From the IMG/VR virus record IMGVR_UViG_3300031088_000819: a stretch of DNA of 64,000 nt, one strand, 5' to 3'. Position numbers and translations under genes: made by a program. The stretch's first letter is position 1. Every line of letters starts with the position of its first letter. The DNA is from a virus. Lineage: Duplodnaviria; Heunggongvirae; Uroviricota; Caudoviricetes. Below are positions 3,119-51,866 of the stretch, piece after piece. Under the pieces are notes generated by a model, which was given only the letters and a program-made list of their open reading frames with translations, had not been told where the DNA came from and searched no databases.

Positions 3119-3181
3119 TTGCATGTGGCGCTAATTCATGTATGATGGAACTACACCGCAACACCAAAGCTAAGGACTATC
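3119..3181 (+). promoter_or_regulatory. sigma70-like promoter with conserved ACACC leader
   Basis: TTGCAT at 3119-3124, N16, TATGAT at 3141-3146, then GAACTACACCGCAACACCAAAGC. Same class as 7535, 19395, 25703 and 40385. Confidence 0.5.
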
Positions 3182-3427
3182 ATGGCTGAGAACACCGCCG
3201 CCCACCAGCTGGCTCCGAGCATCACCACGATTTCCGAAGATCTCAGCCTCTCCAACATGGAGGGAACGGGAGTCTTCCAGTACTTTCTCAAAGATGGAAA
3301 GCTCGTCGCAGTTCACTACTCGGATCTTGGCGAAGTGGATGCCGCCTTCGAGCTCAACTTTACCGCTAGGGAGCTTCCCGTCACCGAGGATATTCTCGAT
3401 GGAGCCCGAGAGGCTACCGGCTATTAG
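3182..3427 (+). CDS. hypothetical protein
   Basis: 81 aa ORF downstream of the leadered promoter. Confidence 0.5.
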   Translation: MAENTAAHQLAPSITTISEDLSLSNMEGTGVFQYFLKDGKLVAVHYSDLGEVDAAFELNFTARELPVTEDILDGAREATGY

Positions 3428-3569
3428 GCCCTAGTGACTCAAACGGGGAGCATATTCCCCACAGAAACTCAATAGACTTGGCGAGGGGAGTGGTGTCCCT
3501 GAGCCAACGGGTGCAGAGTCCATCGCCATTTTTGGTTGGTGTTCAGTGGGCGATGTTGACCGCATCCAA

Positions 3570-3613
3570 GGGGCCTCCCAGGTGTTCATAGCGGGAGGCC
3601 CCATTTCTTTTTG
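3570..3613 (+). terminator. intrinsic terminator
   Basis: GGGGCCTCCC ... GGGAGGCCCC stem followed by ATTTCTTTTT. Confidence 0.7.
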
Positions 3614-3723
3614 GAGCGGCAGTTTCAGCGGCTAGATAGCAAAAGAACGTCTAAAGCTGAACTCAGCTGTCTATTGGATGATGAGCTTGTTTTGGAATAT
3701 TTCGGGCGTGTCGAGCTTTTTCC

Positions 3724-3736
3724 ATGTGTATAATAG
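3724..3736 (+). promoter_or_regulatory. extended -10 promoter
   Basis: TGTGTATAAT lies about 28 nt upstream of the ATG at 3764. Confidence 0.5.
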
Positions 3737-3763
3737 AGCTCGTATTCATATTCAGATGAATGC

Positions 3764-4435
3764 ATGATCCGGAGAGAAGCTCTGGACAGACCTTTGGAGA
3801 ATCCAATGGAAACCTCGAAGAGGAGACGACCCAATCACATCGTAGCTCTTCTGGCGGGCATCGTAGCGGTGCTCGCAGTTGCTGTACTCATTCTCAGCGT
3901 CGCTGTTGCTGGTCTTTCGGTCGGTCACAAGTCGACCGCAGCTAAGGCTGAACCTTCGAAGATGTCCCGGCAGCTCCATAAGATCCAGGACTCTTTGGTT
4001 CCCAGCTATTGGAGGGGAGACCTCGAGGGAAAGCCTGGCGCCGTCGAGCTCGAACTTCGCAGGGATGATAAGCTCGTCGCCGATGATGGCTGTAACAGAG
4101 GTTGGGGCTCCTGGAGTTCCTATGACGGTGTTCATATCCGCTTTGGCACATTTGTAAGCACCCTCAAGGGCTGTCCCGGCCTGGCGGATCTCTGGCTCTA
4201 CGATGCCTCCTACGGGGAGGTGAGCGAGGATGGTTCCACCATGGATGTCTACAACGCTGACGGCAGCTTTTTGGGGCAGCTCCATCGGATCAAGGGAATC
4301 CCTCGAGACAGCGGTGACGAGGGGAGAGCACTGGGAATGGATTGGAAACTCCAAAAGGGCATCAAGTTTCGGCCATATTTTCTTCACCACTACCACCATC
4401 CCCGTCCTCAGCCAGAGCTATCCTCCAATCGCTGA
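3764..4435 (+). CDS. membrane-anchored META (HslJ-like, DUF306) domain protein
   Basis: N-terminal TM helix IVALLAGIVAVLAVAVLILSVAVAGL. GCNRGWGSW and LKGCPG motifs typical of the META domain. Confidence 0.6.
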   Translation: MIRREALDRPLENPMETSKRRRPNHIVALLAGIVAVLAVAVLILSVAVAGLSVGHKSTAAKAEPSKMSRQLHKIQDSLVPSYWRGDLEGKPGAVELELRRDDKLVADDGCNRGWGSWSSYDGVHIRFGTFVSTLKGCPGLADLWLYDASYGEVSEDGSTMDVYNADGSFLGQLHRIKGIPRDSGDEGRALGMDWKLQKGIKFRPYFLHHYHHPRPQPELSSNR

Positions 4436-4665
4436 TTGCTGTAGCCCTGAAATTTTTGCCAGAAAAGAGTTGCGCAGCAGCTATTTCTCACATATTATGG
4501 AGCCATAAGCCAGAAGGATTCAAAAATCAGCCTGGTGGTGTAAGCTGAGCTTACAGAGCTCAATGGACAACTCAATAGCTGAGAAGGCGAAGATGGTGCT
4601 TCGCTTTCTTAGGGGTGAAAGAGTCCTCCGCCGGAGTTTGGTGTTCACATATGCCGGCGGGGTTG

Positions 4666-4706
4666 ACCTACCCCAGGGCCCGGTGGGAAACAAATCCCAT
4701 CGGGCC
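4666..4706 (+). terminator. intrinsic terminator
   Basis: GGGCCCGGTGGG ... CCCATCGGGCCC stem followed by ATTTTCTTT. Confidence 0.55.
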
Positions 4707-4830
4707 CATTTTCTTTGGACTTCGATATGCTAGCTCCGTGCGTGAACCAGCACTCCCATTCATCTGAGACTGTGTCTCCTCTCTCTAAGGATATTCCTCT
4801 ACCGTGACTACATAGGCGATTCCGTTTACA

Positions 4831-4883: not shown

Positions 4884-4898
4884 GATAAGGAGAATCTC

Positions 4899-5447: not shown

Positions 5448-5567
5448 TAATCGACAGCCGTCCTTGGTCTAGCCCAACCATAGCGTAGTTGGTTGTTTTC
5501 AGCCAGGGTTCCACATATGATGGAACCATGAACGCCAGCGAAGAACTATTGTGGAAGAGGGGCTCTG

Positions 5568-5789
5568 ATGGCTAGATGCTACGGCTGGGATACCGACTAC
5601 ATCTACAATGTTTTCGGGGCAGATGAGCATCTGAGGGTAAATCTCTACAAACTCTCTAAGAGCGGTAAGCACTGGAAGCCCATAGCCTCCTGGACATATA
5701 GCACCTTTATGGCTTCCAGCATTGCTCACATGAGAGCCGAACGGCGAATCCGGAAGCTCCGACAGACCTATAACGCAGAACCTATCTAA
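5568..5789 (+). CDS. hypothetical protein
   Basis: 73 aa ORF preceded by a 15-codon mini-ORF (5528-5575) that starts at a leaderless promoter. Confidence 0.4.
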   Translation: MARCYGWDTDYIYNVFGADEHLRVNLYKLSKSGKHWKPIASWTYSTFMASSIAHMRAERRIRKLRQTYNAEPI

Positions 5790-5807
5790 ACCAGTTGGAG
5801 AATAGCA

Positions 5808-6125: not shown

Positions 6126-6131
6126 ATGTAG

Positions 6132-6170
6132 TTGACAGGCCCCTGAGGTTCAATGTATAGTTGAACTATG
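6132..6170 (+). promoter_or_regulatory. sigma70-like leaderless promoter
   Basis: TTGACA at 6132-6137, N18, TATAGT at 6156-6161, N6, ATG at 6168. Confidence 0.55.
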
Positions 6171-6425
6171 AACGCCAACGCTACCCCTGCTACCTCCAAC
6201 ATGAGCTATAAGCTCATCTCAGCCTACGGCAATGCTGCGGCCTATGTCTGCTGGATTGCCATGGCCCTCGTGGTTCCCGGCTTCTTCCTCATCCTCGTTA
6301 ACTACGACAATGCCGTGATCCTCGACGCCATCCGGCCCTGGTTTGCTGGGCTTGCAGGCGTCTGGATCTTCTCCATCGCCTCTATGATCGCCTGCTGGAA
6401 GTTCATCCGGCGAGCTGAGGGTTGA
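6168..6425 (+). CDS. small membrane protein
   Basis: Begins MNANATPA (ATGAACGCC). Two hydrophobic helices. Confidence 0.55.
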   Translation: MNANATPATSNMSYKLISAYGNAAAYVCWIAMALVVPGFFLILVNYDNAVILDAIRPWFAGLAGVWIFSIASMIACWKFIRRAEG

Positions 6426-6550
6426 CATCTCCGGAAAAGATTGTTAGCATAGATTTGTGGGCTCCTAGAAGCATCTACTTATGAGAAAATAGTTCACGTA
6501 TTACCCCCGATGTTTCGATTTTCCCACCTTTGATTTCAAAGCTCCCCGGC

Positions 6551-6588
6551 CCACAAGGGCCGGGGAGCTTTATGCTTTAGCTCCAAAA
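6551..6588 (+). terminator. intrinsic terminator
   Basis: GCTCCCCGGCCC acaa GGGCCGGGGAGC stem followed by TTTATGCTTT. Confidence 0.7.
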
Positions 6589-7534: not shown

Positions 7535-7601
7535 TTGCATTTGATCTGTTTCTGTGTTAGAGTAGGTATCACACCAAACCAACCACAGAGATGGAGCAAC
7601 C
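7535..7601 (+). promoter_or_regulatory. sigma70-like promoter with CA-rich leader
   Basis: TTGCAT at 7535-7540, N17, TAGAGT at 7558-7563, then leader CACACCAAACCAACCAC. Confidence 0.5.
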
Positions 7602-9725
7602 ATGTCTCAGATCACAGCCGCTTTCCGACAGGCAGCACTACGCCGAGGATTCCTCGTTACTCCTCGTAGGACCAAGGGTTCTGTCAACCCTGCCCTCAAG
7701 TTCGCTGCAGCTATTGAGCTCGCCAACCTGGGTTTCATCGTGGATCCCCAGGAACTCGCTGGTGTGGCCGGCAAAGATCTCTCTGCAGTGATCTCAGAGG
7801 CTCGCACTGTCATCGGCGCTGATCGGGACATGGAGCCCATCTACCCGGGCTTCCCCAAGCAGGTGGAGGAGCTCTCCACGCTCACTCTCCTGGTGGAGCA
7901 GATTCTCCACTACTGGACCGGCGGCGCATTCCTGCCGGATTACCCCAAGGAGGTCCGCGAAGGACTGCCCCTCGAGGACATGCTCCGAAACGCCCGTGAG
8001 CTCAAGGTGCTTCCCGCCGCCGATGTTGCCCGGGAGCTGACTAAGGCTCTCGTGCAGTCTCCCGTCGCGATTTCCGATGATGACCGCAACCTTCTCCTCG
8101 AGGGAGCTAAGCTCATCGATTCGAGCACTGTCAGCATCGTAGAGATCGCTTCTGGCGCGGCCAATGGAGAGAATCTCCAGGCCTTCCAGCGAGCGCTCAT
8201 CGCTGCGGGTGTGGCGGACGGAGCTGACGTCTTCCTGGCTCTCGCACCTCAGGTCAAGACCCTGGATCACCTTCTCCGGCTCTTCCTGGGCAGCTTTGCT
8301 CTGCCCTCGGCAGAGAAGTGGCAGAAGAACTTCGAGCAGGCCGTTGGCAATCTCGCAGATCGCCACGCTCGTTCGGTGGCCTTCGGAGCGGTTCCCCGAG
8401 CTGCCCGCAAGGTCTTCGTGGAGCAGACTGGGAAGCTTTCCCGGGGTTTCTTTGCCGACAGCTTCATCGGTCGACAGGGGCTCTGGCGCCGGGCTCTGAA
8501 GGCCGTCCACTCCTTTGAGCTCGCAAAGGACGACGCGGGCCGCAGGGCTCTTGCCATCGTCCACTCCAACGTTGAGTACCAGACGCTCAACTCCCTCATC
8601 GAGTCCGCTAAGGCCCAGCGAGATGTGGCCAAGGCTGTAGCTCTTCTCAAGGAGCACCGTCCCGGTCAGCTGCTTCGAGAGGTCGTTTCTCTGCTCCGGC
8701 TCGTGGATTCCCACGCAGCGGCCATCGAGCTCGCAGAAGCGCTGCGGGCAACTGCAGGCAAGGCCCGCGTGGACACGCTTGTGAGTGCCTACAATGGCAT
8801 TCTGAGCGCCAACGACGAGGGGCCGCGGGTGAACCGCGTTGCGGGTCTCAACAACACCATGCTTGATCGCTCCAACGTGGCCAAGGTGGACGAGGCCCAC
8901 CTCGCCATCGCCCTGGATGCCATCAAGGTTGCCCTGGTGGAGGCCCTGGCTTCCAAGAAGGCCCCCGAGGGTCCTGTGGCTGTGGGTGGAGCTATGGCTC
9001 TGCCTCTGGTGCGCCGGGACGCCTCTACGGCTGACCGCCAGATGAGCCGTGGTGAAAGCTTCGGTCTCGTGGGCGAGGGAGATGTGATCCGCATCTTCGG
9101 CCACTGGAACAACAACATGGGCCGCCACGGCTACATGGACATCGGTGCAGTGCTTCTCGATGGCGACTTCAAGGAGCTGGCTGTGCTCACCTGGGACACA
9201 TGGAACAACCACCGCTCCTGGGGAACCTACTCGGGCGACAAGAACGTGGCTCCCGGAGACTCCGCTGCTGAGTTCTTCGATCTGAAGCTGGCGGAAATCC
9301 GCAAGCAGAAGCCCGAGGCCAAGTGGATCGCTATGACGGTTCAGTCCTGGTCGGGATTCCCCATCGATGATGTGGACTTCATCGCTGGAGCTATGCTCCG
9401 GTCGAAGGATGGAGTTCAGAAGGGCGAGGTCTTCGACGCTCGGGCGGTCACTACCGCTTTCCACCCCACTACGAAGTCTCTCCAGGCCGTCCCCTTCGCA
9501 GTGGATCTCGAAGAGGGTAAGTTCGTTTGGGTGGATAGCTCCAACGGCTCCACAGAGACCGGAGTTTCTTCCTCCAGGGACAGCTCCATTGGGGCAATCG
9601 TCTACGATGAGATCTCCCGGCCTCGGCTCACTGTCGGAAAGTTCGCGGCGCTCTGGGCCCAGGCCCACGGCGCTGAGACCACCGAGGCAGAGGCCGACGT
9701 GGAGCTGCTCACAGGGCTGCTCTAA
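7602..9725 (+). CDS. large protein (707 aa) with a C-terminal TerD-like domain
   Basis: The C-terminal ~200 aa (DIGAVLLDGDF ... YSGDKNVAPGDSAAEFFDLKL ... IAMTVQSW) match the TerD/TerE beta-sandwich with its GDN-type calcium motif. The N-terminal ~480 aa are alpha-helical and unrecognised. Confidence 0.7.
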   Translation: MSQITAAFRQAALRRGFLVTPRRTKGSVNPALKFAAAIELANLGFIVDPQELAGVAGKDLSAVISEARTVIGADRDMEPIYPGFPKQVEELSTLTLLVEQILHYWTGGAFLPDYPKEVREGLPLEDMLRNARELKVLPAADVARELTKALVQSPVAISDDDRNLLLEGAKLIDSSTVSIVEIASGAANGENLQAFQRALIAAGVADGADVFLALAPQVKTLDHLLRLFLGSFALPSAEKWQKNFEQAVGNLADRHARSVAFGAVPRAARKVFVEQTGKLSRGFFADSFIGRQGLWRRALKAVHSFELAKDDAGRRALAIVHSNVEYQTLNSLIESAKAQRDVAKAVALLKEHRPGQLLREVVSLLRLVDSHAAAIELAEALRATAGKARVDTLVSAYNGILSANDEGPRVNRVAGLNNTMLDRSNVAKVDEAHLAIALDAIKVALVEALASKKAPEGPVAVGGAMALPLVRRDASTADRQMSRGESFGLVGEGDVIRIFGHWNNNMGRHGYMDIGAVLLDGDFKELAVLTWDTWNNHRSWGTYSGDKNVAPGDSAAEFFDLKLAEIRKQKPEAKWIAMTVQSWSGFPIDDVDFIAGAMLRSKDGVQKGEVFDARAVTTAFHPTTKSLQAVPFAVDLEEGKFVWVDSSNGSTETGVSSSRDSSIGAIVYDEISRPRLTVGKFAALWAQAHGAETTEAEADVELLTGLL

Positions 9726-9923: not shown

Positions 9924-10025
9924 TTTCCCTGCTAGCGATAGCCAGCAGAAAACGGGTTTAGAGCAACCGTTGCTTGAACTTTCCCCCTGGTGTACTATCT
10001 TATTACACTAACCGTAAGGATCACC

Positions 10026-10475
10026 GTGCTTCAGCTTCATCTCATCATCGTGCCCCTGGTCTTTGCTGCGCTGCTGGCGGCCACCATTTTCTTCCACTCC
10101 AAGGCTCGCAAGAAGAGCCTCGAATCAGGTAAGGAATACACGGATTCAATCCATGCCCTTTTTGGCTTTATGGGTATGGTTTTCAGCGCTATCATGGGGA
10201 TCGCTATTCTGATTTCCCTCATCCCCTTCCAGCCGAAGTTCTGGTTCGTCCACAGCGAGGCAGGAACCATCACGGAGATCGATTCCCGCAGCGCCTCCGA
10301 CGGCAGCAACCTCATCACCGACTTCGCTATCAAGCTGGACAGCGTGGAAGATGTGCTGATTTCAAATGATCCCCGCTTCCTTCAGGTCGAAAAGGGCGAT
10401 TCGGTGGATCTCATCTGCACATGGGAATGGGTTCCCTACGGCAAGGATATCTACAACTGCCAGCTCGGAGGCTAA
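10026..10475 (+). CDS. membrane protein
   Basis: GTG start with SD AAGGA 6 nt upstream. N-terminal TM helix plus a second helix. Confidence 0.5.
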   Translation: MLQLHLIIVPLVFAALLAATIFFHSKARKKSLESGKEYTDSIHALFGFMGMVFSAIMGIAILISLIPFQPKFWFVHSEAGTITEIDSRSASDGSNLITDFAIKLDSVEDVLISNDPRFLQVEKGDSVDLICTWEWVPYGKDIYNCQLGG

Positions 10476-10521: not shown

Positions 10522-10569
10522 GCCCATTAGAGCCCAGTTGAAGCACCCGTTGAAAAATGGGAATCTATC

Positions 10570-11031
10570 ATGTATGGTTTAACTATGACCACAAGCTTTG
10601 AGAGCCGACTGATGGTTTCCAAGGGATCCTTCGTTGCCCTGGAGGTCCCCGTCGAAGCCGTGGAGAGCTACAGCCCTAGTCTTCGGAGGGAACTCGGCAG
10701 CCGCTACGATCAGCTGGTCGCCAACAGAGATGCCCGTTCGGGAGCTGGAAGCTACCACATGACTGTGATCAAGCCCCGCGAGTTCCGCCAGCTCAGGAAG
10801 AGCCACGGGGCACTGGAGCTTCCCTCGGGGCACTTCCGGGTTGTGGTCCACGGAGTGGGCACCGTTTCCGACGATAGCTCACAGACTTGGTATCTCGTGG
10901 CGGACTGCCCGGAGCTCAACCAGTGGCGCCGTAGCCTTGGGCTGCCAGCCCATGATTTCCACATCACGCTCGCCTTCGAAGCCGGAGGGGATGTCCACGG
11001 GCCATCCAAGGGCATCGAGACTCTGCTCTAG
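10570..11031 (+). CDS. 2H phosphoesterase (LigT/Acb1-like fold)
   Basis: Two H-x-T-x motifs (YHMTVI and FHITLA) about 90 aa apart in a 153 aa protein. Confidence 0.55.
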   Translation: MYGLTMTTSFESRLMVSKGSFVALEVPVEAVESYSPSLRRELGSRYDQLVANRDARSGAGSYHMTVIKPREFRQLRKSHGALELPSGHFRVVVHGVGTVSDDSSQTWYLVADCPELNQWRRSLGLPAHDFHITLAFEAGGDVHGPSKGIETLL

Positions 11032-11368: not shown

Positions 11369-11406
11369 TTGCGTAGTTCCACCCTGTGGCATATGATTGA
11401 ACTATG
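11369..11406 (+). promoter_or_regulatory. sigma70-like leaderless promoter
   Basis: TTGCGT, N17, TATGAT at 11392-11397, N6, ATG at 11404. Confidence 0.55.
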
Positions 11407-11751: not shown

Positions 11752-11818
11752 CCCAACGGATAGAAGAATCCCTGGCCGTGCAGTTGACGGCCAGGGATTC
11801 TTCGTATAGCGTGGAACT

Positions 11819-12496
11819 ATGAACGCCACCATTCGCACCCGTCTGGCCCGAGCCGCCGCCACTATTGCCGCCGCCGCAGTTGCTTTCGGCATGCTGACGG
11901 CATGTTCAAGCGCTCCCGAGAGCCGTCCCGAGTCCGACCCCCAGGCTGTGGCTTCGGTGTTCGAGGCTCTCGATGGCGCCGATCAGGTCGTGGCCCAGAA
12001 GTCGCCGATCTCCTTTGGTGACAAGTGGACAATCACGGCCGACGGCCAGGAGATCGGTGAGATCCGCGGCGAGGTGATCTACCTCATCGGTGACACCTAT
12101 ACTCTCTTCGCTCCGGATGGTTCCATTGTGGCCTCCGAGGAAGAGCAGTTCAAGGTCGTAACCCGCAAGGCGAATCTCTACGACAGCACGGGGCAGATCT
12201 ATGGTGCCCTCGACCAGCAGTTCACCCTGTTCATGGCGAAGTATTCGATCCTCGATGGCGAGGGTGTAGCTATTGGAACCGCTGAGCAGAAGCTCAACTG
12301 GACCATGAAGTTCGATGTGATGAGCGCTTCGGGCTCCAAGGACTACCAGATCAGCAAGGCCGCCATCTCGATGGGCTCCAAGGTGACTGTGGATCGGCTC
12401 ACCACTGACACGAAGATCTCCATGCTGGACGCTCTCTGGGTGGCAGTTGTGGCCTCCGAGGTTGAGGACGCTCAGAGCGAGGATTCCAACAGCTAA
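11819..12496 (+). CDS. lipoprotein
   Basis: MNATIRTR ... signal peptide with lipobox LTAC. TATAGC is 6 nt upstream of the ATG. Confidence 0.6.
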   Translation: MNATIRTRLARAAATIAAAAVAFGMLTACSSAPESRPESDPQAVASVFEALDGADQVVAQKSPISFGDKWTITADGQEIGEIRGEVIYLIGDTYTLFAPDGSIVASEEEQFKVVTRKANLYDSTGQIYGALDQQFTLFMAKYSILDGEGVAIGTAEQKLNWTMKFDVMSASGSKDYQISKAAISMGSKVTVDRLTTDTKISMLDALWVAVVASEVEDAQSEDSNS

Positions 12497-13271: not shown

Positions 13272-13404
13272 CGCCCTCAAGGCATCCTGAAGCGAAGAAA
13301 AGTTCAAAGCGCATTCATCCTGTGATTTTGCCTTTGTAGTCGCTTAGATCGATGTCTAGCGTGTTAATTTGCCCACAGACTCTAAAGGACGTAGCGTAGG
13401 AACC

Positions 13405-14037
13405 ATGACCAATCTCACACTTTCCCACGGCGAGCTCGTGCTGAAGAACCGAGTCGCAGCCAGTGCCTTCCTTCTGGAGGCCATTGAGAAGACCGGCGGC
13501 AACCGCAAGTTCTCGGGCACCATCGCAGAGCTGGAGCAGATCGCTGAGGTCAATCTCGACAGCTGGGAGCCCGGCACGGGTGCCGTTGATGGAGACGTGC
13601 GGCTACTTCAGGTGCCCACCGAGGGGTTCCTCACGGACATTGTGGAAATCACCGAAGCCAATCGGGATCGACTCGAGGTGAGCTTCAATGCCCGTCGAGA
13701 TGGGGAAGCTCCTGTGCCCACTATCTTCATCCGTGGTGGCGAGCCATCGGCCGCGGCCCGTGTTCAGCTCGTTGTCTATCGGGCCGATGTTCTTGCACGG
13801 GACGAGGACCGCTCTTCGGAAGCCGAGTGGGAAATCGTCGCTATTCTGGCAGACCCCGAGCTCCCCGAGGGGCTTACGATGGTACCCATGAACCCCCACA
13901 CCATGGCTCGCAATGCTGCCCACGCGAAGGGCGGCACCCTGCGGAGCTACACCAACGAGGAGTGGTTCCAAGCGGTGAACTTCTGGGCTAACCACGCTCG
14001 TGTGGTTCCCCTGGATGAGGAGCCCGAAGTTGGCTGA
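13405..14037 (+). CDS. hypothetical protein
   Basis: TAGCGT, N7, ATG. 210 aa. Confidence 0.5.
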   Translation: MTNLTLSHGELVLKNRVAASAFLLEAIEKTGGNRKFSGTIAELEQIAEVNLDSWEPGTGAVDGDVRLLQVPTEGFLTDIVEITEANRDRLEVSFNARRDGEAPVPTIFIRGGEPSAAARVQLVVYRADVLARDEDRSSEAEWEIVAILADPELPEGLTMVPMNPHTMARNAAHAKGGTLRSYTNEEWFQAVNFWANHARVVPLDEEPEVG

Positions 14038-15281: not shown

Positions 15282-15747
15282 AAATCCGACTAGGTTGAGG
15301 GGCTTCCATGGTGGCCTTTCTACTGACAGGCCGCCGCTGGAAGCTCTTCCCCTAGATTCCAAAGAAAAGCAGATAAACGCACTACGACAGCAGCCCAGAT
15401 GGGCTGGAAGAACTACTGGAAGAAGCTGGAAGCGTGAAATCCGTTGCCGTCTACAAGGACAAGGATGGTAGGCTCCTTGAGCTCACCTCTCTCCTAGAAC
15501 CTCGGAATGGGGGTCTAGTCCACGAGCTATCCCTGAAGCGAAAGCGCCGCTGGGCTGGAGCCTGGCTGCTCGAATCGGCCGTCCACAAGAAAAGCAGCTC
15601 CTGGGAGTCGAGCCTTCTCCAGCTCATGGTGGTTAGTGAGAAGAGGGAGCTCCTTGGTCGCCACGGCGTGGAGCTTCCCGAGTGGGGTCTCCCGCCCCAG
15701 GTCAGCTAGCAGTTGCCCAAATCTCTACTGCAGGATATGATGGAACT

Positions 15748-15996
15748 ATGACTACTTCAGCAACCCTCACGAAGCCCGAGGCCGATTTCGCAGCTCCCGC
15801 CCGGCAGCTCCCGGACGGCCGAGGTCCGCTCACCAATCAGGACCGCTGCGACAGCTGCGGCGCTCAGGCCTACCTCGCAGCAGTTGTCAATGGCACGGAG
15901 CTGCTCTTCTGCGGCCACCACGCGAACAAGGGCGAAAGCCGACTTATCCAGCTGGCCACGAGCTGGCACGACGAGAGGGCGAAGCTCTATGGCTGA
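15748..15996 (+). CDS. small Cys/His protein
   Basis: TATGAT, N6, ATG. Contains CDSCG ... FCGHH. Confidence 0.5.
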   Translation: MTTSATLTKPEADFAAPARQLPDGRGPLTNQDRCDSCGAQAYLAAVVNGTELLFCGHHANKGESRLIQLATSWHDERAKLYG

Positions 15997-17910: not shown

Positions 17911-17948
17911 TTGCGAAAAGTCCATTGGTGGCATATGATGGAACTATG
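17911..17948 (+). promoter_or_regulatory. sigma70-like leaderless promoter
   Basis: TTGCGA, N17, TATGAT at 17934-17939, N6, ATG at 17946. Confidence 0.55.
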
Positions 17949-19394: not shown

Positions 19395-19462
19395 TTGCTC
19401 CAATATTTCGGATAGTGTAGAGTGGCTTTCAACTACACCACAACCAAACCTAGAAAGTTGCC
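19395..19462 (+). promoter_or_regulatory. sigma70-like promoter with CA-rich leader
   Basis: TTGCTC, N17, TAGAGT at 19418-19423, then leader AACTACACCACAACCAAACC. Confidence 0.5.
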
Positions 19463-22850: not shown

Positions 22851-22994
22851 GTAGCTGCTTAGTCCCTCGCCAATGCGTATAGATTGCGATCTGAGTGACT
22901 TTTGCCCGTGATTGCCACAACCCTATTAGCTGAGCATTCTGTCGTCTTAGATCGCCGCCATTGCCTTTCCGCTATCTTTGTGTAGCATAGTGCT

Positions 22995-33905: not shown

Positions 33906-34050
33906 ATTCGGCCACTAGAGGTGCCACATGGCGATCTGAAGAACTTTCAGCCAATCTAGCGAGGGATGTTGTTCTTCGCTATTCTAGGTTCTCAGAACAC
34001 ATTCCTCAGCCCTGTTGTGGAATCGCTGCCTTTAGCGTAAAATAGCTGCT

Positions 34051-37216: not shown

Positions 37217-37278
37217 TAGCTCTAAAATTAGCGCTCACCCTAGTTTACGTAGCGCTATTTGTGGTGTATCATTGACCC

Positions 37279-38333: not shown

Positions 38334-38378
38334 TAGCGCCCCGTTGCCTTTCAATGGACTATGGCATATGATAGCACT

Positions 38379-38759
38379 ATGAACACCGCGACAGCTACCC
38401 TCAAGCTGAGCCACACGGGCCCCGACGAGGGGCTCCACTTCTGGCTAGTCGTGGATGGGGTTCCCGTGAGCTATGCTAAAATCTATGAGCGCACCACCGC
38501 CCATGGCACAGAGCTCACGCTCTGCGACATCGAAACTCGCGAGGGCCACAGGAACAGAGGCCATGCTCGAAGGCTTCTGGAGCTGCTCGCAGAGGGCTAT
38601 GGCGTTGCTAAGGTTATCCACGGAGGAAGCTACACTCCAGATGGTTTCAGCTACATTTCGCAGCTCGTTGAGCGCAGGGGAGCGCCGGCCGTTGGACCCA
38701 GCTGTGGTCCCATGAACTTTGTCCACGACTGGGATTCGTTCCAGCCAAAATACGCTTGA
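38379..38759 (+). CDS. GNAT acetyltransferase-like protein
   Basis: TATGAT, N6, ATG. Begins MNTATATL. RNRGHARRLLELLAEGYG resembles GNAT motif A. Confidence 0.45.
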   Translation: MNTATATLKLSHTGPDEGLHFWLVVDGVPVSYAKIYERTTAHGTELTLCDIETREGHRNRGHARRLLELLAEGYGVAKVIHGGSYTPDGFSYISQLVERRGAPAVGPSCGPMNFVHDWDSFQPKYA

Positions 38760-39414: not shown

Positions 39415-39454
39415 GGTTGCCAGCTCTGAGCTTTCAGCGTATGATGGTGCTATG
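39415..39454 (+). promoter_or_regulatory. sigma70-like leaderless promoter
   Basis: TTGCCA, N17, TATGAT at 39440-39445, N6, ATG at 39452. Confidence 0.55.
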
Positions 39455-40384: not shown

Positions 40385-40447
40385 TTGACAGAGGGGTTCT
40401 CTGTGTGTAGCATTGAACTACACCAACAAACACCACTTGGAGAACTC
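40385..40447 (+). promoter_or_regulatory. sigma70-like promoter with CA-rich leader
   Basis: TTGACA, N17, TAGCAT at 40408-40413, then GAACTACACCAACAAACACC leader and SD GGAGA. Confidence 0.55.
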
Positions 40448-41083
40448 ATGTCTTACCACTGGGAAAATGTGATCTGGCAGTCCAAGGATGGTAGCTGGAA
40501 CCGCGGCTACTACAAGAGGATCTCCATGGCTTCCACGGGTGGTTACTACGACGAAGAGTACGACTCCGAGTGGGATGACGACTTCGACTTCACCGGCTTC
40601 GACTACCTCCAAACCGGATTCCGTAGCGAAAATGACGCTGACCGCTACCAGCCCCACGGCAACCCCGGCGGCGCTACGGAGGTCTACCCCTACAAGGGCA
40701 ACTCCAAGGAGTGCAAGCGGCTCGATCAGCTCGCCTTCTTCCACAAGTTCCCCGCTGAGAAGGTGAAGTTCGAGCGCAAGGAGCTCCTCCGCAAGAACCG
40801 CGAGCACTTCAAGAAGCTGGCGGAAGAGTGGCACGCTGAGCGGGTGGGTGAGGCTTCACGGAACATGCGGAAGGTTCGAGTGACGCTCAAGTCCGACGAG
40901 CGGGCCTACGACTACTTCGGCGCTCAGCTTATCCTCGAGGGAAACTTCCGAAAGAACGGCGACTGGCTCGAAGTTGAGGGCCGCCGAATCTACAACATGG
41001 AGACCAACAAGTTCGAGAAGCATGTCCACAAGCTGGAGGAAGTTGTCTTCCGGGCGCCGAGCTACTACGGCCGCCGCTGGTGA
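40448..41083 (+). CDS. hypothetical protein
   Basis: 211 aa with an acidic, Tyr-rich N-terminus. Confidence 0.55.
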   Translation: MSYHWENVIWQSKDGSWNRGYYKRISMASTGGYYDEEYDSEWDDDFDFTGFDYLQTGFRSENDADRYQPHGNPGGATEVYPYKGNSKECKRLDQLAFFHKFPAEKVKFERKELLRKNREHFKKLAEEWHAERVGEASRNMRKVRVTLKSDERAYDYFGAQLILEGNFRKNGDWLEVEGRRIYNMETNKFEKHVHKLEEVVFRAPSYYGRRW

Positions 41084-44411: not shown

Positions 44412-44447
44412 GTTGACTTTTAATAGCAGCTCATATAGCGTTCTTCC

Positions 44448-44861
44448 ATGGACACCATCACCCAGAGCTACCTCCTCGAAGAGTCGCCCTGCGACAGCAT
44501 CGACAAGGATACTTTCACCAACGGAGACTGCTGGAAGCTGGCGCGGCTGCTCCATGATCGCGGCGTAGGTGAGCTCGTCATAGTTGCCGACTTCGATGAC
44601 CCCATCGACAGCTGGTGCCACATGGCAGTAGAGCTCCCGGATGGCAACTATCTCGACGTTCTGGGGGTCTACACTCGCCAGCAGTTTGAGGACTACTGGT
44701 TCCGCCACTGCTGGGGAAGCAATCCCGTCGTCTACAAGCCCGAGCTCACCGCGAATCTCTGGAAACGGCTCACGGACGACCAGGAAAAGGACTACACCAG
44801 CCCCGAAGATGTTGAGGCAACTGCTGGCACCCTTGTGGACTGGTTCGAGGACATCCTCTGA
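44448..44861 (+). CDS. hypothetical protein
   Basis: TAGCGT, N6, ATG. 137 aa. Confidence 0.5.
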   Translation: MDTITQSYLLEESPCDSIDKDTFTNGDCWKLARLLHDRGVGELVIVADFDDPIDSWCHMAVELPDGNYLDVLGVYTRQQFEDYWFRHCWGSNPVVYKPELTANLWKRLTDDQEKDYTSPEDVEATAGTLVDWFEDIL

Positions 44862-45018
44862 AAGCTGCCCCTAGCAGCTGGCCAACTTCGCCAGGGGTGA
44901 GGCTTAGCTAAAGCTCATGGGTTTGCTTTCAGAGCTGCTAATAGTGTAACATAGTTCTAACCCACCCATTGGGCTATAAATGTAGTGCTCCATCCTGCTG
45001 GAGCGGAAAGGATCCAAT

Positions 45019-46098
45019 ATGGGTTCCCTTATTCTTACAGTTCTGCTTCTAGTTCTGCTGGTGGCAGGACTCGTATCGGCGCGGCTAGCGTCTCGAAAGA
45101 TCAAGGCAGCCAAGGCTCAGCTGAAAGCTCCAGCGCCCCAGGAGTCCTCTGGCAAAAATCGAGGCTACGACTACGGCTACGAGGAACAGCGCCAGGCTCG
45201 CGCCAAAAAGCTCAAGTCCAAGATCACTGTTCAGTCCTACGTTCGCTGGGGCTCTCGGGCGGTCTCCGTTCTTTCTCTAGCGCTCATCGCCATCATGTGC
45301 TTCACCACCGTTTCCGCGAAGAACGTGGGTGTAGCGGTAACCTTCGGTGCGGTTTCCGAGAACACTCGAGCTCCGGGTATCCAGACAAAGCTACCCTGGA
45401 CGAAGATCATCGAGATCGATGGCACGATTCAGACAGACCAGTATAGTGGCGAGAACTGCATCGCCGTTCGCATCGGCGACGGAAGCCAGGCCTGCGCTGA
45501 AATCGTCAACCGCTGGCAGATCAACCCCGAAAAGGCCGCTGGCATCTACGAGCAGCACCGGTCGGATGATCCTACTCAGTCTTTCCGCTCCGCCATCGTT
45601 AGCACTCAGCTGAAGCAGTCCGTTCAGGAAGCTCTGAAGAACTACAACCCCATCGCTCAGCTCAAGGCTGTGGGAGGGGACGAGCTGTCCACCGATCTGT
45701 CCTTCGCTCCCGACTACGGTGAGATCTCCAAGGTCATCGAAGACGACATGAAGAAGCGGCTATCCGATAAGAACCAGGCTCAGATCGAAGGCATCACTTT
45801 CTCCTATCTGAAGCTCTCCGAGAACACCCAGCGCAAGCTCGATGACTACGTAGCTGCAATCGGTGAGACTCGCATTGCCACCCAGCAGCGAGAGACCGCC
45901 AAGGCTCAGGCTGAGGCCAACAAGGAACTGTCTGCATCTGTTAGCAACGACCCCAACGTGCTCGTGTCGCGCTGCTTCGACATGCTCAAGGATGCAAGCC
46001 AGACTGGCTACCAGCTCCCTGCGGGCTTCAGCTGCTGGCCTGGTGGTGGCTCGGGCGTGGTGATTCCGGGGGTTCCTGGAGCCTCCACTACCGAGTAA
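45019..46098 (+). CDS. SPFH/band-7 (prohibitin-like) domain membrane protein
   Basis: N-terminal TM helix, a basic linker and a second TM. VSAKNVGVAVTFGAVSE..APGIQTKLPWTKIIEID resembles the SPFH core. C-terminal coiled-coil-like region. Confidence 0.55.
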   Translation: MGSLILTVLLLVLLVAGLVSARLASRKIKAAKAQLKAPAPQESSGKNRGYDYGYEEQRQARAKKLKSKITVQSYVRWGSRAVSVLSLALIAIMCFTTVSAKNVGVAVTFGAVSENTRAPGIQTKLPWTKIIEIDGTIQTDQYSGENCIAVRIGDGSQACAEIVNRWQINPEKAAGIYEQHRSDDPTQSFRSAIVSTQLKQSVQEALKNYNPIAQLKAVGGDELSTDLSFAPDYGEISKVIEDDMKKRLSDKNQAQIEGITFSYLKLSENTQRKLDDYVAAIGETRIATQQRETAKAQAEANKELSASVSNDPNVLVSRCFDMLKDASQTGYQLPAGFSCWPGGGSGVVIPGVPGASTTE

Positions 46099-47828: not shown

Positions 47829-47867
47829 TTGACTCATCCCGGCGGCTAGTGTATAGTTGTACCCATG
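47829..47867 (+). promoter_or_regulatory. sigma70-like leaderless promoter
   Basis: TTGACT, N18, TATAGT at 47853-47858, N6, ATG at 47865. Confidence 0.55.
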
Positions 47868-49346: not shown

Positions 49347-49353
49347 GGACCCT

Positions 49354-49968
49354 ATGAGCAAGTTTACAGAATCCGATTTCCCGATGCTCCATGAGCTCTT
49401 GCTCTTGGAGATGACGGTCACCCTGGACTGTGAGAATACACCCGATGAAGATGATGACTCTGATGAGTACATGACTCAACTCTCCATTCCTGGGGCCAGC
49501 TATGAGGATGATGTATGGGGCAACTTTTTTGACTTCCATGTGAGGAGCCCCTCCTACATGTTTGATACAGAAGAGAGCAAGGTCGCCAACGAGAAGAAAC
49601 TCGCTAAGGTTTTCAAGACCTTTGTGCAGCCCGATGGGGAAATTGGGCTCACTTTCACCTATCTGCCTGGCCCGCCCTGGGGTAGCTCGGAGCAAGAGCT
49701 TAAAGCTAATGCGAAGCTTATCTTCGGCGCTACCCGTCTCAGTGAGGCGATGAGCTTTGAAGAATTCCTGCAGGAGCTCGATGAGAATGCTCCTTGGACA
49801 CAGGAGCTCTTCGGGGAGGGTGGGGAAATGTATGCGATGCTCTTCGAGGTTACTAAGGCTGGGCGAAAGCCAGTTCTTGAGGACTACATGGAGGTTCTTG
49901 AGAAGCCGCTGTGGTTCAGGCGCAAGGGTCAGCTCTACAACCTGTATGTTAGCGAGTACTCGGATTAG
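49354..49968 (+). CDS. hypothetical acidic protein
   Basis: 204 aa. Confidence 0.5.
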   Translation: MSKFTESDFPMLHELLLLEMTVTLDCENTPDEDDDSDEYMTQLSIPGASYEDDVWGNFFDFHVRSPSYMFDTEESKVANEKKLAKVFKTFVQPDGEIGLTFTYLPGPPWGSSEQELKANAKLIFGATRLSEAMSFEEFLQELDENAPWTQELFGEGGEMYAMLFEVTKAGRKPVLEDYMEVLEKPLWFRRKGQLYNLYVSEYSD

Positions 49969-49977
49969 GAGATAAGA

Positions 49978-50292
49978 ATGGCAACGCTAACAGTTTTTGG
50001 AAGCTCCGACGATCTCATTGAGGTGGACGGCGTCGAGGGCGCCGACGAGTTCAATGACACTTCAGGCCACTGGCGTGGGATCATCGAAGCGCCCGATGGG
50101 GCAACGGCCATTGTCTATGTGGATCTTCGCAGGAACGGCACTTGGACAGTCGCTCTGGGTCAGTACGAGGAAGACTATCCTCTGCCCAATTGGCCTGTAA
50201 GCATCACTGTTGACGAAGATCTTTGTGCATACTCTACAAAGGCCACCATCGAGGTTCCCGAGGGCACCACGATCCGCAAATACGAAGACTAG
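49978..50292 (+). CDS. hypothetical protein
   Basis: SD GGAGATAAGA upstream. Confidence 0.45.
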   Translation: MATLTVFGSSDDLIEVDGVEGADEFNDTSGHWRGIIEAPDGATAIVYVDLRRNGTWTVALGQYEEDYPLPNWPVSITVDEDLCAYSTKATIEVPEGTTIRKYED

Positions 50293-50300
50293 GGGAACCC

Positions 50301-50627
50301 ATGGCCAAGACACTTGAAGAATACCGAACTATTCTGGCAAAGGGACTCGAAGAGCAGGAGCTTCTCGGAGACTTTGATCTAGATGGGCTCATCGATGAAC
50401 TCTCCAACTTTGGTAGCACAGAGCTTCCCGAGATGAAGCCTGGAGCTCGCTATGTCACCGCCGCAATCGTGAGCTCCGAATCTGGAGACACAGATCTCTT
50501 CCTCGGCCAGGGGCTTCTGACAGCTAGAGACATAGCCGTGGATAGCTTTCTCCTCAGCCCCACCTGGTGGTACGGCTTTGAGAACATGAATGTCTATGAT
50601 GTTAAGCACCTGGAGGTAGGGCCATGA
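50301..50627 (+). CDS. hypothetical protein
   Basis: SD GGGGAA upstream. 108 aa. Confidence 0.45.
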   Translation: MAKTLEEYRTILAKGLEEQELLGDFDLDGLIDELSNFGSTELPEMKPGARYVTAAIVSSESGDTDLFLGQGLLTARDIAVDSFLLSPTWWYGFENMNVYDVKHLEVGP

Positions 50628-50845
50628 GTGAGCTCAAAAAGCACGAGATCAGCATCAGCTACACGAAGAAAGTAGTTGAGAAGACCACTACTACAACCAA
50701 CCAAGAGCTCACACCTAGAGAACTAGCAAAGCGCGCTCTCTGGAACTTCTTCGATAGCCGCTATCCCGGAGAAAACGAGATTCCGGAGACCATCGAAGTG
50801 GATGGTGTGGTGTTCAGCTACAAGGATCTACAGGCCCAGGAGTAA
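50624..50845 (+). CDS. hypothetical protein
   Basis: ATGA overlap with the upstream gene. Confidence 0.4.
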   Translation: MSELKKHEISISYTKKVVEKTTTTTNQELTPRELAKRALWNFFDSRYPGENEIPETIEVDGVVFSYKDLQAQE

Positions 50846-50921
50846 GCTAAAACCGCAACCAACTGTAGCAATGCCCACTCTTGCCACTAAAGCCCTCTAG
50901 CCCGTGTGATAGGATAGACCC

Positions 50922-51866
50922 ATGAACCTAGAGAGCTCCAGAGCGCAGCAAACTAACGCTCTCCGGCCCGTTGTGGCCATTGACGTGGACGGCGTGCTGC
51001 GAATCCATGAGAAAGAGGGGCTGGATCAGCTTCATTTTCTCACCAGAGAGATAACCTACTACCGCAGCGAATATCCCGATCTCTTCCATGGCAAACCTCG
51101 CTGGGATGAGTCTCACAAGATTAGCCATGTGGACACATTCTCCAAGGAGGCCGTAGAGCTCATTCTGGAGCTCGCAGAAGATCCTCGAGTGGATCTCGTC
51201 TGGGCGACTACCTGGCAGCACTATGCCAACAGATACTTCGGACAAGCCCTGGGGCTGCCTCATCTTCCCGTGGCGGTCAAAACTCTTGAGCCCAGGGAGA
51301 GCAACTATTTTCACTGCTCTCCCGCTTGGAAAACATCGCAGCTAGCGCGGCAGTTCGATGGCCGCCCCCTCATCTGGCTAGACGACAACATGCCAGATAG
51401 GCCCGGAGAGGATCTTGCCGAACAAAGGCTACCCGAGGATCGAGCATTTACTCGCTCCTACGCAGTGAATCCCTTCGGTGGAATCACTAGTGAAGATCGG
51501 GTTGAGATCCTTGCTTGGATTGATCAGGTCACAAGTGCAGAGGGTAGGGCATATCTCGAAATGGCCCACGAAAACAAGCTCCAGGAGCAGCGCCGTTGGA
51601 TGGAGGAGAGACGCCTTGCCCACCAAATATCCGAAGACGCTGTGGAAAAAGTCCTAGAGCTCTATCCGGATCAGCCCCATTTCGCTAGATCTCTCGCGGG
51701 AGTTGTTAGGCATAGGATGGGCTTGAGCATCCCCACCATCGAGCTCCATCTCAAGCGCCATAGCCTCAGAGGGGACGCAGAAGAGCTGCTGAGCACCCTC
51801 TGGATTGACGGCTACCACAGGGAAGAGGATGAGACCCCTACTGAGCCCATTGAACTCAACTTCTAG
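50922..51866 (+). CDS. HAD-superfamily hydrolase-like protein
   Basis: VAIDVDGVL (DxDG motif I), VWATTW (motif II) and IWLDDN (motif IV). TAGGAT, N6, ATG. Confidence 0.5.
   Translation: MNLESSRAQQTNALRPVVAIDVDGVLRIHEKEGLDQLHFLTREITYYRSEYPDLFHGKPRWDESHKISHVDTFSKEAVELILELAEDPRVDLVWATTWQHYANRYFGQALGLPHLPVAVKTLEPRESNYFHCSPAWKTSQLARQFDGRPLIWLDDNMPDRPGEDLAEQRLPEDRAFTRSYAVNPFGGITSEDRVEILAWIDQVTSAEGRAYLEMAHENKLQEQRRWMEERRLAHQISEDAVEKVLELYPDQPHFARSLAGVVRHRMGLSIPTIELHLKRHSLRGDAEELLSTLWIDGYHREEDETPTEPIELNF

Follow-up and report, generated by a model that had tools for sequence, protein, structure and literature searches.

In a 64,000-nucleotide stretch of the Caudoviricetes record IMGVR_UViG_3300031088_000819 (hereafter the window; part of a 475,513-bp metagenomic contig, ENA ERZ27247443 k141_1824480), we found about 33 copies of a sigma-70-type promoter, all on the + strand of a one-directional gene block, that is, about one promoter per 2 kb. 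We read them, with a probability that we put at roughly 0.75, as a single promoter family whose transcripts are predicted to begin either at the start codon itself or with a short A/C-rich leader. The catalogue comprises 23 predicted leaderless starts, five core leader sites, two further leadered promoters and two promoters placed before non-coding RNAs. Coding potential lies essentially all on the + strand across the window (GC ~54%), mostly in small genes.

Promoter copies, start codons and leaders

We scanned the window with the relaxed pattern TTGnnn-N16-18-TAnnnT-N6-7-ATG, which returned 21 sites on the + strand and none on the - strand, whereas 200 dinucleotide shuffles gave 0.49 on average and never more than 3. 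All but one of the 21 sites open an open reading frame (ORF) of at least 40 aa. The motif is thus enriched over shuffled sequence, as an earlier note on this DNA, made from its letters alone, had supposed. That note had counted at least 15 genes with the stricter form TTG(A/C)(C/A)(A/T)-N16-18-TAT(G/A)(A/G)T; the number is reached with the relaxed pattern, while the strict one has 7 sites. Among 51 bipartite matches on the + strand, an ATG stands 6 nt past the -10 hexamer in 16 and 7 nt past it in 5, any other distance from 0 to 15 nt occurring at most once, and no distance peak after the hexamer was found for GTG, TTG or CTG. This placement matches the canonical distance from -10 to +1. At a score of at least 12, a position weight matrix built from the sites matched the + strand 30 times and the - strand 0 times. 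The signal is a family-specific motif, together with its strand bias and its ATG register.

The information in the aligned sites lies in five elements: (A)GTTG(C/A), a T/G-rich stretch abutting the -10, TAnnnT, a discriminator of approximately (G/T)GAACT, and an A at +1. T1, A2 and T6 of the -10 hexamer (consensus TATGAT) are invariant in 31 of 31 sites, the -35 consensus (A)GTTG(C/A)(C)n is close to TTGACA, and the spacer, mostly of 17 nt and of 16 or 18 nt in the rest, has no conserved sequence (columns of ~0-0.25 bits). A -35, a -10, a spacer of 17 ± 1 and an above-chance placement in the direction of the genes are all present, as sigma-70 promoters demand. The leaderless and the leader class share the discriminator (G/T)GAACT, the +1 A and an A/C-rich initial transcript, and differ only downstream of +1, where one finds either UGAACGCCACCACC, or CACCAACCAAACAC followed by a Shine-Dalgarno sequence and an ATG 28-32 nt on. 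In both classes the first 15-20 nt are A/C-rich and G/U-poor (AUGAACGCCACCACC or ACACCAACCAAACAC).

The predicted leaderless starts are listed below, each with its -35, spacer length, -10, discriminator or distance, and ATG. Some lines refer to three related contigs: L012 (GC 60%, ~82% nucleotide identity), L015 (GC 60%, syntenic, 56% amino-acid identity in a marker protein) and the strain variant L004 (97.9% identity).

739..776, + strand: TTGCGA-17-TAGGAT-N6-ATG (774, MTTTD, 73 aa); the public gene call has the same ATG
5493..5572, + strand: TTGTTT-17-TATGAT-GGAACC-ATG (5528), heading a 14-codon mini-ORF (MNASEELLWKRGSDG, then stop) whose stop overlaps the ATG of the next gene at 5568 (ATGGCTAG)
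6132..6170, + strand: TTGACA-18-TATAGT-TGAACT-ATGAACGCC (6168, 85 aa); kept in L012, and the L015 orthologue is also predicted leaderless
10550..10587, + strand: TTGAAA-17-TATGGT-TTAACT-ATG (10585, 2H-SAK protein); the L015 orthologue at 13599 is predicted leaderless; the public call takes the in-frame ATG at 10570, inside the promoter
11369..11406, + strand: TTGCGT-17-TATGAT-TGAACT-ATGAACGCCACC (11404); the public gene call has the same ATG
11784..11821, + strand: TTGACG-17-TAGCGT-GGAACT-ATGAACGCCACC (11819); the L015 orthologue at 14464 is predicted leaderless
13369..13407, + strand: TTGCCC-17-TAGCGT-N7-ATG (13405, DUF3228); the public gene call has the same ATG
15713..15750, + strand: TTGCCC-17-TATGAT-GGAACT-ATG (15748, DUF7455); the Pfam domain fits the 82-aa form, and the public call is GTG 15682
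17911..17948, + strand: TTGCGA-17-TATGAT-GGAACT-ATG (17946); the public call is GTG 17907, just upstream of the -35
22961..22997, + strand: TTGCCT-16-TAGCAT-AGTGCT-ATG (22995)
23446..23483, + strand: TTGCCC-17-TATGGT-AAATCC-ATG (23481)
34015..34053, + strand: TTGTGG-17-TAAAAT-N7-ATGAAC (34051); the L015 orthologue at 4385 is predicted leaderless
37244..37281, + strand: TTTACG-17-TATCAT-TGACCC-ATGAACGCC (37279)
38344..38381, + strand: TTGCCT-17-TATGAT-AGCACT-ATGAACACC (38379)
39417..39454, + strand: TTGCCA-17-TATGAT-GGTGCT-ATGAATGCCACC (39452)
44413..44450, + strand: TTGACT-17-TAGCGT-TCTTCC-ATG (44448)
47829..47867, + strand: TTGACT-17-TATAGT-N7-ATGAACGCT (47865)
50905..50924, + strand: extended -10 type with no -35, TGTGA-TAGGAT-AGACCC-ATGAAC (50922; site 50910)
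51917..51955, + strand: TTGACC-18-TATCAT-TGAACC-ATG (51953), with 0 substitutions against L004; the public call, made on L004, is ATG 52004
53016..53054, + strand: TTGACT-18-TAGGAT-AGGATC-ATG (53052)
54808..54846, + strand: TTGATC-17-TAATGT-N7-ATG (54844); the gene model is uncertain, the public annotation of L004 having a - strand ORF instead
57037..57075, + strand: TTGCCT-17-TATGAT-N7-ATG (57073); the public call, on L004, is ATG 57061, inside the -10
61684..61721, + strand: TTGTGG-17-TATCGT-AGTAAT-ATG (61719, NAPRTase/PncB-like), with a terminator-like hairpin upstream

All five leaderless examples of the earlier note (6132-6170, 11369-11406, 17911-17948, 39415-39454 and 47829-47867) were recovered, as were its eight further -10-N6-ATG cases (774, 13405, 34051, 37279, 38379, 50922, 51953 and 53052) and its five leader sites (3119, 7535, 19395, 25703 and 40385). 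The N6 spacing it had ascribed to the leaderless starts holds for most of them, the distance being N7 at 13405, 34051 and 47865, and a full -35/-10 pair is present in nearly all, the start at 50922 having a TGn-extended -10 and no -35. Its remark that many of these genes open with the same codons also stands, with exact ATGAACGCC at 5528, 6168, 11404, 11819 and 37279, and close variants at 38379, 39452 and 47865.

A further ORF of 20 codons (17287-17349) stands at -10-N6-ATG with no recognisable -35, and its stop overlaps the start of the RNase H gene (GTGA, 17346). This ORF and the mini-ORF at 5528-5572 (14 codons) could possibly be leaderless upstream ORFs translationally coupled to the next gene, an arrangement discussed in PMC9031893.

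Seven promoters are leadered, and the five core ones among them carry a ACACCAACC-type leader of 28-32 nt:

3119..3184, + strand: leader class, TTGCAT-16-(TG)TATGAT-GGAACT, +1 ACACCGCAACACCAAAGCUAAGGACUAUC AUG (3182); 29-nt leader
7535..7604, + strand: leader class, TTGCAT-17-TAGAGT-AGGTATC, +1 ACACCAAACCAACCACAGAGAUGGAGCAACC AUG (7602, 707-aa protein)
19395..19465, + strand: leader class, TTGCTC-17-TAGAGT, with AACUACACCACAACCAAACC ~4-5 nt further downstream of the -10; ATG 19463 (AAA ATPase)
25703..25771, + strand: leader class, TTGCAT-17-TACTGT-AGAACT, +1 ACACCAACCAAACACGAUCCUAGAAGGAAUC AUG (25769)
40385..40450, + strand: leader class, TTGACA-17-TAGCAT-TGAACT, +1 ACACCAACAAACACCACUUGGAGAACUC AUG (40448)
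9970..10028, + strand: short-leader variant, TTGCTT-17-TACTAT-CTTATT, +1 ACACUAACCGUAAGGAUCACC GUG (10026)
44923..45021, + strand: leadered, TTGCTT-18-TAACAT-AGTTCT, +1 AACCCACCCA... ATG 45019 (SPFH protein)

Properties of the 5' ends, conservation and alternative readings

The genes with predicted leaderless starts combine an absent Shine-Dalgarno sequence with an AUG start, as leaderless genes should. A Shine-Dalgarno score of at least 4 was reached by 0 of 21 of them, compared with 47 of 79 other genes, the rest of the block having clear GGAG/AGGAG ribosome-binding sites, and the start codon is ATG in 23 of 23. Of 20 such ATGs, 10 are preceded by an in-frame stop at no more than 18 nt; these stops, the public gene calls and the L015 orthologues indicate that the ATG is the real start of a conserved ORF.

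The 5' ends are also distinguished by composition. Leaderless genes have an A+C content of 0.69 from +4 to +24; the value is 0.57 for other genes (P = 4e-5) and 0.53 further inside the leaderless ones, and the leaders are 80% A+C (comparison value 0.51). Part of the bias is found at the amino-acid level, Thr, Asn and Ala being enriched at leaderless N-termini and Asn occupying codon 2 in 9 of 22 leaderless genes but in only 1 of 79 others (Fisher P = 2e-6). Yet codons 2-8 also show a synonymous excess of A and C (z = 3.6; other genes 1.3; inside leaderless genes 0.5), from which it follows that selection acts on the nucleic acid, in agreement with the selection on the first transcribed nucleotides that the earlier note had suggested. 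The predicted minimum free energy (MFE) of positions +1 to +40 is -4.1 kcal/mol for leaderless genes, compared with -6.3 at the starts of other genes and -8.0 in random windows, and the first 15 nt have an unpaired probability of 0.78 vs 0.54-0.60. An A/C-rich tract, weakly structured according to predicted folding, therefore lies beside the initiation site, as expected of an enhancer.

We propose that a bacterial holoenzyme with a primary-type sigma factor, probably that of the host, would read these promoters early in infection. At ~23 of them the +1 A would be the A of the AUG and the mRNA leaderless, which would imply that, for translation, ribosome and initiator tRNA bind the 5'-terminal AUG directly. 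At least seven promoters would give instead an A/C-rich leader, then a moderate Shine-Dalgarno sequence and then the start codon. Because A and C cannot pair with each other, such a 5' end stays single-stranded, and unstructured A/C-rich ends may suit ribosome loading in both kinds of mRNA; the stereotyped MNAT N-termini would be mostly a by-product of selection on the RNA. Leaderless initiation strongly prefers or needs a 5'-terminal AUG (PMC9031893), a requirement that the exclusive use of ATG fits; leaderless starts of C. glutamicum are ~79% AUG and 21% GUG (PMC3890552). CA repeats beside the start codon enhance both leadered and leaderless translation (PMC9031893, citing Martin-Farmer & Janssen 1999) and ACA motifs upstream of the Shine-Dalgarno sequence are translational enhancers (PMC3879156). 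By analogy, the role of translational enhancer that the earlier note gave to the CA-rich leader is plausible. The exact transcription start, the identity of the polymerase and its sigma factor, the timing and the effect on translation are points that we infer from the sequence.

Comparison with relatives argues for the same architecture. In L012 the -35, -10, leader and first codons are kept overall while the spacers have diverged. The L012 gene for the 707-aa protein is 82.7% identical; upstream of it, the stretch from TGTGTTAGAGT up to the ATG shows 100% identity, another TTG hexamer stands at the -35, and identity in the spacer drops to ~50%. The L012 orthologue of the gene at 6168 reads TTGACA-N17-TATGGT-N6-ATGAACGCCAAC. 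In L015 we found 8 promoter-ATG matches vs 0.02 expected, all at independently called gene starts and 5 of the 8 with ATGAAC; all four window-L015 orthologue pairs that were identified (29-50% identity) are predicted leaderless in both genomes, and L015 also carries ACACCAC-type leaders. A further relative, L009, has 4 matches vs 0.12 expected. In the strain variant L004, 5 of 6 promoter windows have no substitution, where ~7 would be expected in total; in the sixth (50910), CGTGTGATAGGAT into the first codons is identical and the upstream 25 nt have 8 changes, only where a -35 would lie. The relatives range in GC from 42 to 60%. Promoter anatomy, an ATG at the expected start, the absent Shine-Dalgarno sequence and conservation in relatives are thus all borne out.

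Several observations weigh against this reading. The start site is placed by spacing alone. A scan of positions 1-20000 with the generic E. coli consensus TTGACA/TATAAT gave 7 sites vs 8.2 expected, a result that we consider uninformative since the family departs from TTGACA/TATAAT at several positions. Public gene calls have the same ATG for 8 of 14 leaderless candidates, prefer another in-frame start nearby for 5 of the 14, and leave 1 uncalled. In L005 and L013, relatives of lower GC, little or no clear enrichment was seen. An ordinary sigma-70 promoter would not need a GAAC(T/C) discriminator and an AAC second codon as strongly conserved as they are here and in L015, and at 19395 the AACUACACC motif is displaced by 4-5 nt relative to the -10, which means that this motif is not simply a polymerase contact. 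Lack of structure alone explains neither the conservation of GAAC(T/C) and AAC nor this displacement. Finally, the window spans 64 of the 475 kb, which leaves room for the phage to encode a sigma factor or polymerase of its own. Enrichment was not clear either in the control region of Mycobacterium phage WXIN (1 match vs 0.13 expected).

Huge phages often encode their own transcription factors, and the promoters might depend on a sigma factor of the phage itself or on a polymerase modified by it, and not on the unmodified host holoenzyme. Conserved positions outside the hexamers, present also in L015 (A/G before TTG, T at -5 from the -10 hexamer, GAAC(T/C)), and the lack of enrichment in the generic sigma-70 scan are what one would expect in that case. 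We nevertheless judge it improbable: a TTGACA-like -35, a 17-bp spacer and TAnnnT are the hallmark of a primary sigma factor, sigma-A promoters of C. glutamicum combine TAnnnT with a ttgnca -35 that is weak (PMC3890552), the 25/27 Pfam families listed for 92 window proteins include neither a sigma nor a polymerase domain, and the block looks like an early region, which would be transcribed before phage proteins exist.

The conserved letters over the start site, (G/T)GAACT-ATGAAC, could instead form an operator (GAAC-N3-GAAC) for a DNA-binding regulator. GAAC is indeed repeated at a fixed distance in many sites, and 6-7-bp inverted repeats bracket the -10 at 5516, 6156, 11392 and 51941 (GGTTCCA...TGGAACC at 5516). 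Over the 31 sites, however, such operator-like repeats are not significant when compared with permuted promoter pairs (P = 0.08 to 0.18), and the second GAAC is absent in the leader class; we regard an operator as very unlikely.

We give as little credence to a promoter-and-start cassette copied by recombination. Arbiol et al. are said to have described, in 2010, a T4-type early promoter with a flanking stem-loop as a cassette at gene-shuffling junctions. The window has one junction-like case only: a 22-nt module, TATGATGGAACCATGAACGCCA (5493-5572; 5516), is shared with L012 between flanks that are not homologous, and heads the 14-codon ORF in the window and a 473-aa gene in L012. The spacers, however, are without shared sequence, which copying would preserve; upstream folds are no stronger than random ones (-15.3 vs -15.9 kcal/mol, P = 0.82), so that hairpins are not enriched; and the architecture is retained, in diverged sequence, by orthologues of 29-50% identity. 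The T4-type promoter-stem-loop cassette was rejected on these grounds. A sigma-70-type family under selection at the level of the RNA is the reading that we retain.

Candidate non-coding RNAs, host and genome context

Three further features of the window are predicted non-coding RNAs or structured untranslated regions (UTRs):

4470..4716, + strand: candidate small RNA of ~210 nt (4505-4716) with its own family promoter, TTGCGC-17-TATTAT-GGAGCC-A (promoter 4470-4498)
3428..3616, + strand: long structured 3' UTR, or a small RNA from it, of the first leader-class transcript, following the 81-aa gene 3182-3427
6422..6580, + strand: promoter TTGACA-17-TAGCAT and conserved structured RNA (6456-6536), then a terminator hairpin

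The first of these has what a separate non-coding transcript needs, a promoter and a terminator, whereas 3428-3616 shows a terminator only. In the RNA at 4505-4716 (MFE -97.1 kcal/mol, z = -6.6), a hairpin at 4625-4662 displays GUUUGGUGUUCACAUAUG, and an intrinsic terminator follows at 4676-4707. Its 3' half (seed hairpin and terminator) is ~99% identical in L012, the seed hairpin itself being identical, while its 5' half has frameshifting indels. A low-scoring 56-aa ORF (4563-4733) from the ORF scan overlies this RNA. The region 3428-3616 has a G/U-rich hairpin loop at 3529-3546 (UUUUUGGUUGGUGUUCAG) and a terminator hairpin at 3570-3602 whose loop (3580-3592) is AGGUGUUCAUAGC, the exact complement of GCUAUGAACACCU.

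These loops raise the possibility, on top of the promoter reading, that phage hairpin-loop GGUGUUCA seeds pair with the stereotyped 5' ends (leaderless type AUGAACGCC, leader type ACACCAACC; GGACAUCA is a designed mutant form of the seed). The seeds would cover the first 9-12 nt, (A)UGAAC(G/A)CCA(A)C including the start codon, and the ACACCAACCAAA leader starts; pairing might prevent ribosomes from binding, or affect 5'-end-dependent decay, and in this way switch a whole regulon. First-codon identity, and not just A/C content, would then be constrained by seed pairing, and the stereotyped 5' ends might serve as a regulon tag by which ~15 or more early transcripts are jointly silenced or stabilised. 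We hold this lead, in both its parts, to be tentative and rather doubtful.

Several results speak for it. The sequence GGTGTTCA, which is the complement of UGAACACC and pairs with UGAACGCC via one G-U, has 5 copies on the + strand and 6 over both, where shuffles give 1.04 and none of 100 reach 6, and three copies lie in non-coding hairpin loops within 1.2 kb (3538, 3581 and 4640). When windows were ranked by an ungapped pairing score, averaged over 31 predicted 5' ends, the loci came 1st (3428-3616) and 3rd of 21,328 on the + strand (z ~5.7). Mean duplex energies are -12.6, -9.7 and -12.3 kcal/mol, compared with -7.6 to -10.1 in control sets, and composition-matched shuffles of the loops did as well in 0, 2 and 1 of 200. 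The terminator loop AGGUGUUCAU would form a 9-bp duplex over nt 1-9, AUG included, of eight leaderless mRNAs. The promoter, terminator, fold and conserved seed hairpin of 4505-4716 count in the same direction, and a precedent exists in GcvB, whose G/U-rich seed silences C/A-rich enhancers (PMC3879156).

On the other hand, the lead was found post hoc, and the score of any single complementary sequence is inflated because the targets share a motif. Two further GGTGTTCA copies lie inside coding regions (4127 and 50809), and 3428-3616, being without a promoter, is perhaps only a 3' UTR. No such loop was seen in 22 kb of L015, where the best-scoring window is a promoter spacer; since L015 has ATGAAC starts all the same, the AAC preference does not need a small RNA. 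No relatives turned up for the 3.4-4.2 kb region, exact-pattern scans of metagenome and viral collections for the small-RNA region returned only unrelated low-GC contigs, and the 209-aa protein beside it found no homologue but itself. Judging from the sequence, a candidate small RNA may still account for part of the unexplained GAAC/AAC conservation.

The third feature contains a conserved structured RNA of ~75 nt, GGCUCYUUGG..GGYUACU..N20..CCGUUUCGCYUUUCCUGAY, with copies in L005 (8190-8262 and 8381-8452), L009 (7640-7710 and 9902-9977), L013 (8109-8181 and 9909-9981), L015 (9903-9975) and L012 (3715-3795). It folds into two nested helices with 95% of cells paired and compensatory changes in 9 of 14 pairs; none of 500 shuffles reach the same, and slid controls are 33-54% paired. 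In the relatives one copy is the 5' leader of a 705-721-aa gene and another stands alone with a terminator; the window has the stand-alone copy only, and its 707-aa gene carries a CA-rich leader instead. The RNA has no Rfam match. No Rfam family was found in the window at gathering score, with nothing credible in 3400-6700 at E <= 1, and no tRNA genes were found in the window.

An actinobacterial host, which the earlier note had proposed, is plausible from the sequence. Predicted leaderless genes make up ~23% of the genes in the block, a share that fits Actinobacteria (PMC3160421, PMC3890552), and ttgnca-type -35 elements, TAnnnT, AGGAG sites and leaders of ~30 nt resemble those of Corynebacterium and Actinobacteria (PMC3890552, PMC3160421). 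For the 707-aa and HAD_SAK_2 proteins, the only or best homologues among cultured phages are those of actinophages: the former (7602-9725) shares 45% identity along its entire length with a protein of Mycobacterium phage WXIN (Omegavirus) and 28% with one of Rhodococcus phage Weasels2, and the latter matches only Streptomyces phages. The other support offered in the note, a PncB of actinobacterial type, falls away, because the phage homologues of this protein belong to faecal, Listeria, Bacillus, Staphylococcus and Enterococcus phages, not to actinophages, and PncB points elsewhere. Nor were WhiB or Lsr2 domains found among the 25/27 Pfam families. Leaderless genes also abound in Deinococcus-Thermus, Aquificae, delta-proteobacteria and Acidobacteria (PMC3160421), which weighs against the actinobacterial assignment. 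In L013, a 550-aa lysin-like protein with Glyco_hydro_25 and LGFP repeats (17081-18733, - strand) suggests an actinobacterial (mycolata-type) cell wall in the host of that relative. GTDB was discarded as a host clue, giving only two contigs of 3.7-3.9 kb (Lysobacter and Pararhizobium metagenome-assembled genomes) that are uninformative on the host.

Among 50,697 deposited phage genomes in INPHARED there is no near-identical phage or near relative of the window, and a search of IMG/VR via the 707-aa protein confirmed no relative. In metagenomes the same protein has >200 homologues at 50-59% identity on contigs of up to ~0.8 Mb, which places the window in a large uncultured clade. The protein (phrog_33734), to which no function is assigned, is near-universal in this clade of 200-830 kb contigs with a GC of 42-60%. 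The largest known phage genomes have ~735 kb, so some contigs of the clade would exceed them, if they are phage genomes.

The domains of the window are typical of the non-structural region of a large phage: RNase H, MazG, dCMP deaminase, pyrimidine-dimer glycosylase and NAPRTase, together with 2H and HAD 'Swiss Army Knife' RNA-repair domains, homing-endonuclease-like ORFs and AAA ATPases. No phage match was obtained for the 438-aa protein at 53378, and the 380-aa protein at 59628 matched only Bacillus phage G among phages. The gene of the latter (59628-60770; weak match to gp666 of that phage) and the adjacent one (60800-61615) are probably tandem paralogues, with near-identical N-termini (MATRYHI and MAKRYHV). 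Positions 24000-32000 form a low-GC island (0.47-0.48 vs ~0.54-0.60 elsewhere), probably mobile or recently acquired, with large ORFs that have homing-endonuclease/HNH-like matches (29277-30881, and 31953-33905 at the edge) and a helix-turn-helix protein (26559-27863). A 122-bp intergenic direct repeat occurs at 1460-1581 and 9788-9909 (98% identical copies). Weaker copies, at 77-82% to the L012 version, are located near 46981-47096, near 56851-56960 and at the end of L012.

Comparison with known systems

If the promoter reading is true, about a quarter of the genes of the block would be leaderless from one promoter family, which would provide a model for annotating starts and operons across the whole clade, where automatic gene callers would at present misplace some of these starts. 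The host would be narrowed to lineages that translate leaderless mRNAs efficiently; ~30 natural transcripts would be available for testing A/C-rich, unpairable 5' ends, so far shown mainly with engineered constructs; and the compact promoter-leader modules could be reused for expression in such hosts. The small-RNA lead, if true, would show a phage governing a group of its leaderless mRNAs through RNA pairing over the 5'-terminal AUG, which would be unusual.

The kind of system is already known, since SigA-like promoters predicted to give leaderless mRNAs have been described in the Cluster O mycobacteriophages PL1, PR2 and PL2 (PMC4351075) and leaderless genes are common in several phyla. In Cluster O, as here, the prediction was made from sequence alone. 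The phages differ in that there are 3 such starts per genome in Cluster O and ~23 in 64 kb here, about a quarter of the genes, on one strand, with stereotyped ATGAAC-GCC/ACC codons, a parallel A/C-rich leader class and a genome of ~475 kb. The literature on Cluster J (Omegavirus) does not mention promoters or leaderless genes.

Leaderless genes of Actinobacteria and Deinococcus-Thermus have TAnnnT ~10-12 nt upstream of the start codon (PMC3160421), and in C. glutamicum leaderless mRNAs account for 33% of the total, leader lengths having a second peak at 26-40 nt (PMC3890552). The window resembles these hosts in its TAnnnT 6-7 nt before the AUG, ttgnca -35, AGGAG sites elsewhere and leaders of ~30 nt; it differs in a -35 that is far better conserved, in the use of ATG only and no GTG, and in an A/C-rich 5' signature that has not been reported for host leaderless genes.

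The Start-Associated Sequences (SAS, and ESAS) of Cluster K phages (PMC3203893) are likewise a stereotyped and conserved sequence at many unrelated gene starts in one orientation. Theirs is a single 13-bp block, GGGATAGGAGCCC, with a Shine-Dalgarno-like GGAG just upstream of the start codon (PMC3203893), whereas the present motif is bipartite, has a variable spacer of ~17 bp, lacks a Shine-Dalgarno sequence and includes the start codon. As the motif is not a single asymmetric 13-bp GGGATAGGAGCCC block and has no GGAG core, the Cluster K element was ruled out (PMC3203893).

In CA/ACA enhancers (PMC9031893; Yang et al. 2014, PMC3879156) such tracts also follow a leaderless AUG or precede a Shine-Dalgarno sequence. 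Those were engineered repeats or single E. coli and Salmonella genes, while here the use is predicted in ~30 natural transcripts. As to the small-RNA lead alone, GcvB (PMC3879156) also sets a G/U-rich single-stranded seed against C/A-rich elements near many starts, but in the window the seeds lie in hairpin loops, the targets are 5'-terminal AUG ends and both partners would be phage-encoded. What is new with respect to all these systems is the density and stereotypy of the starts, the A/C-rich 5' signature shared by leaderless and leadered transcripts and its conservation in a clade of huge uncultured phages, to which the candidate small RNAs complementary to those 5' ends may be added.

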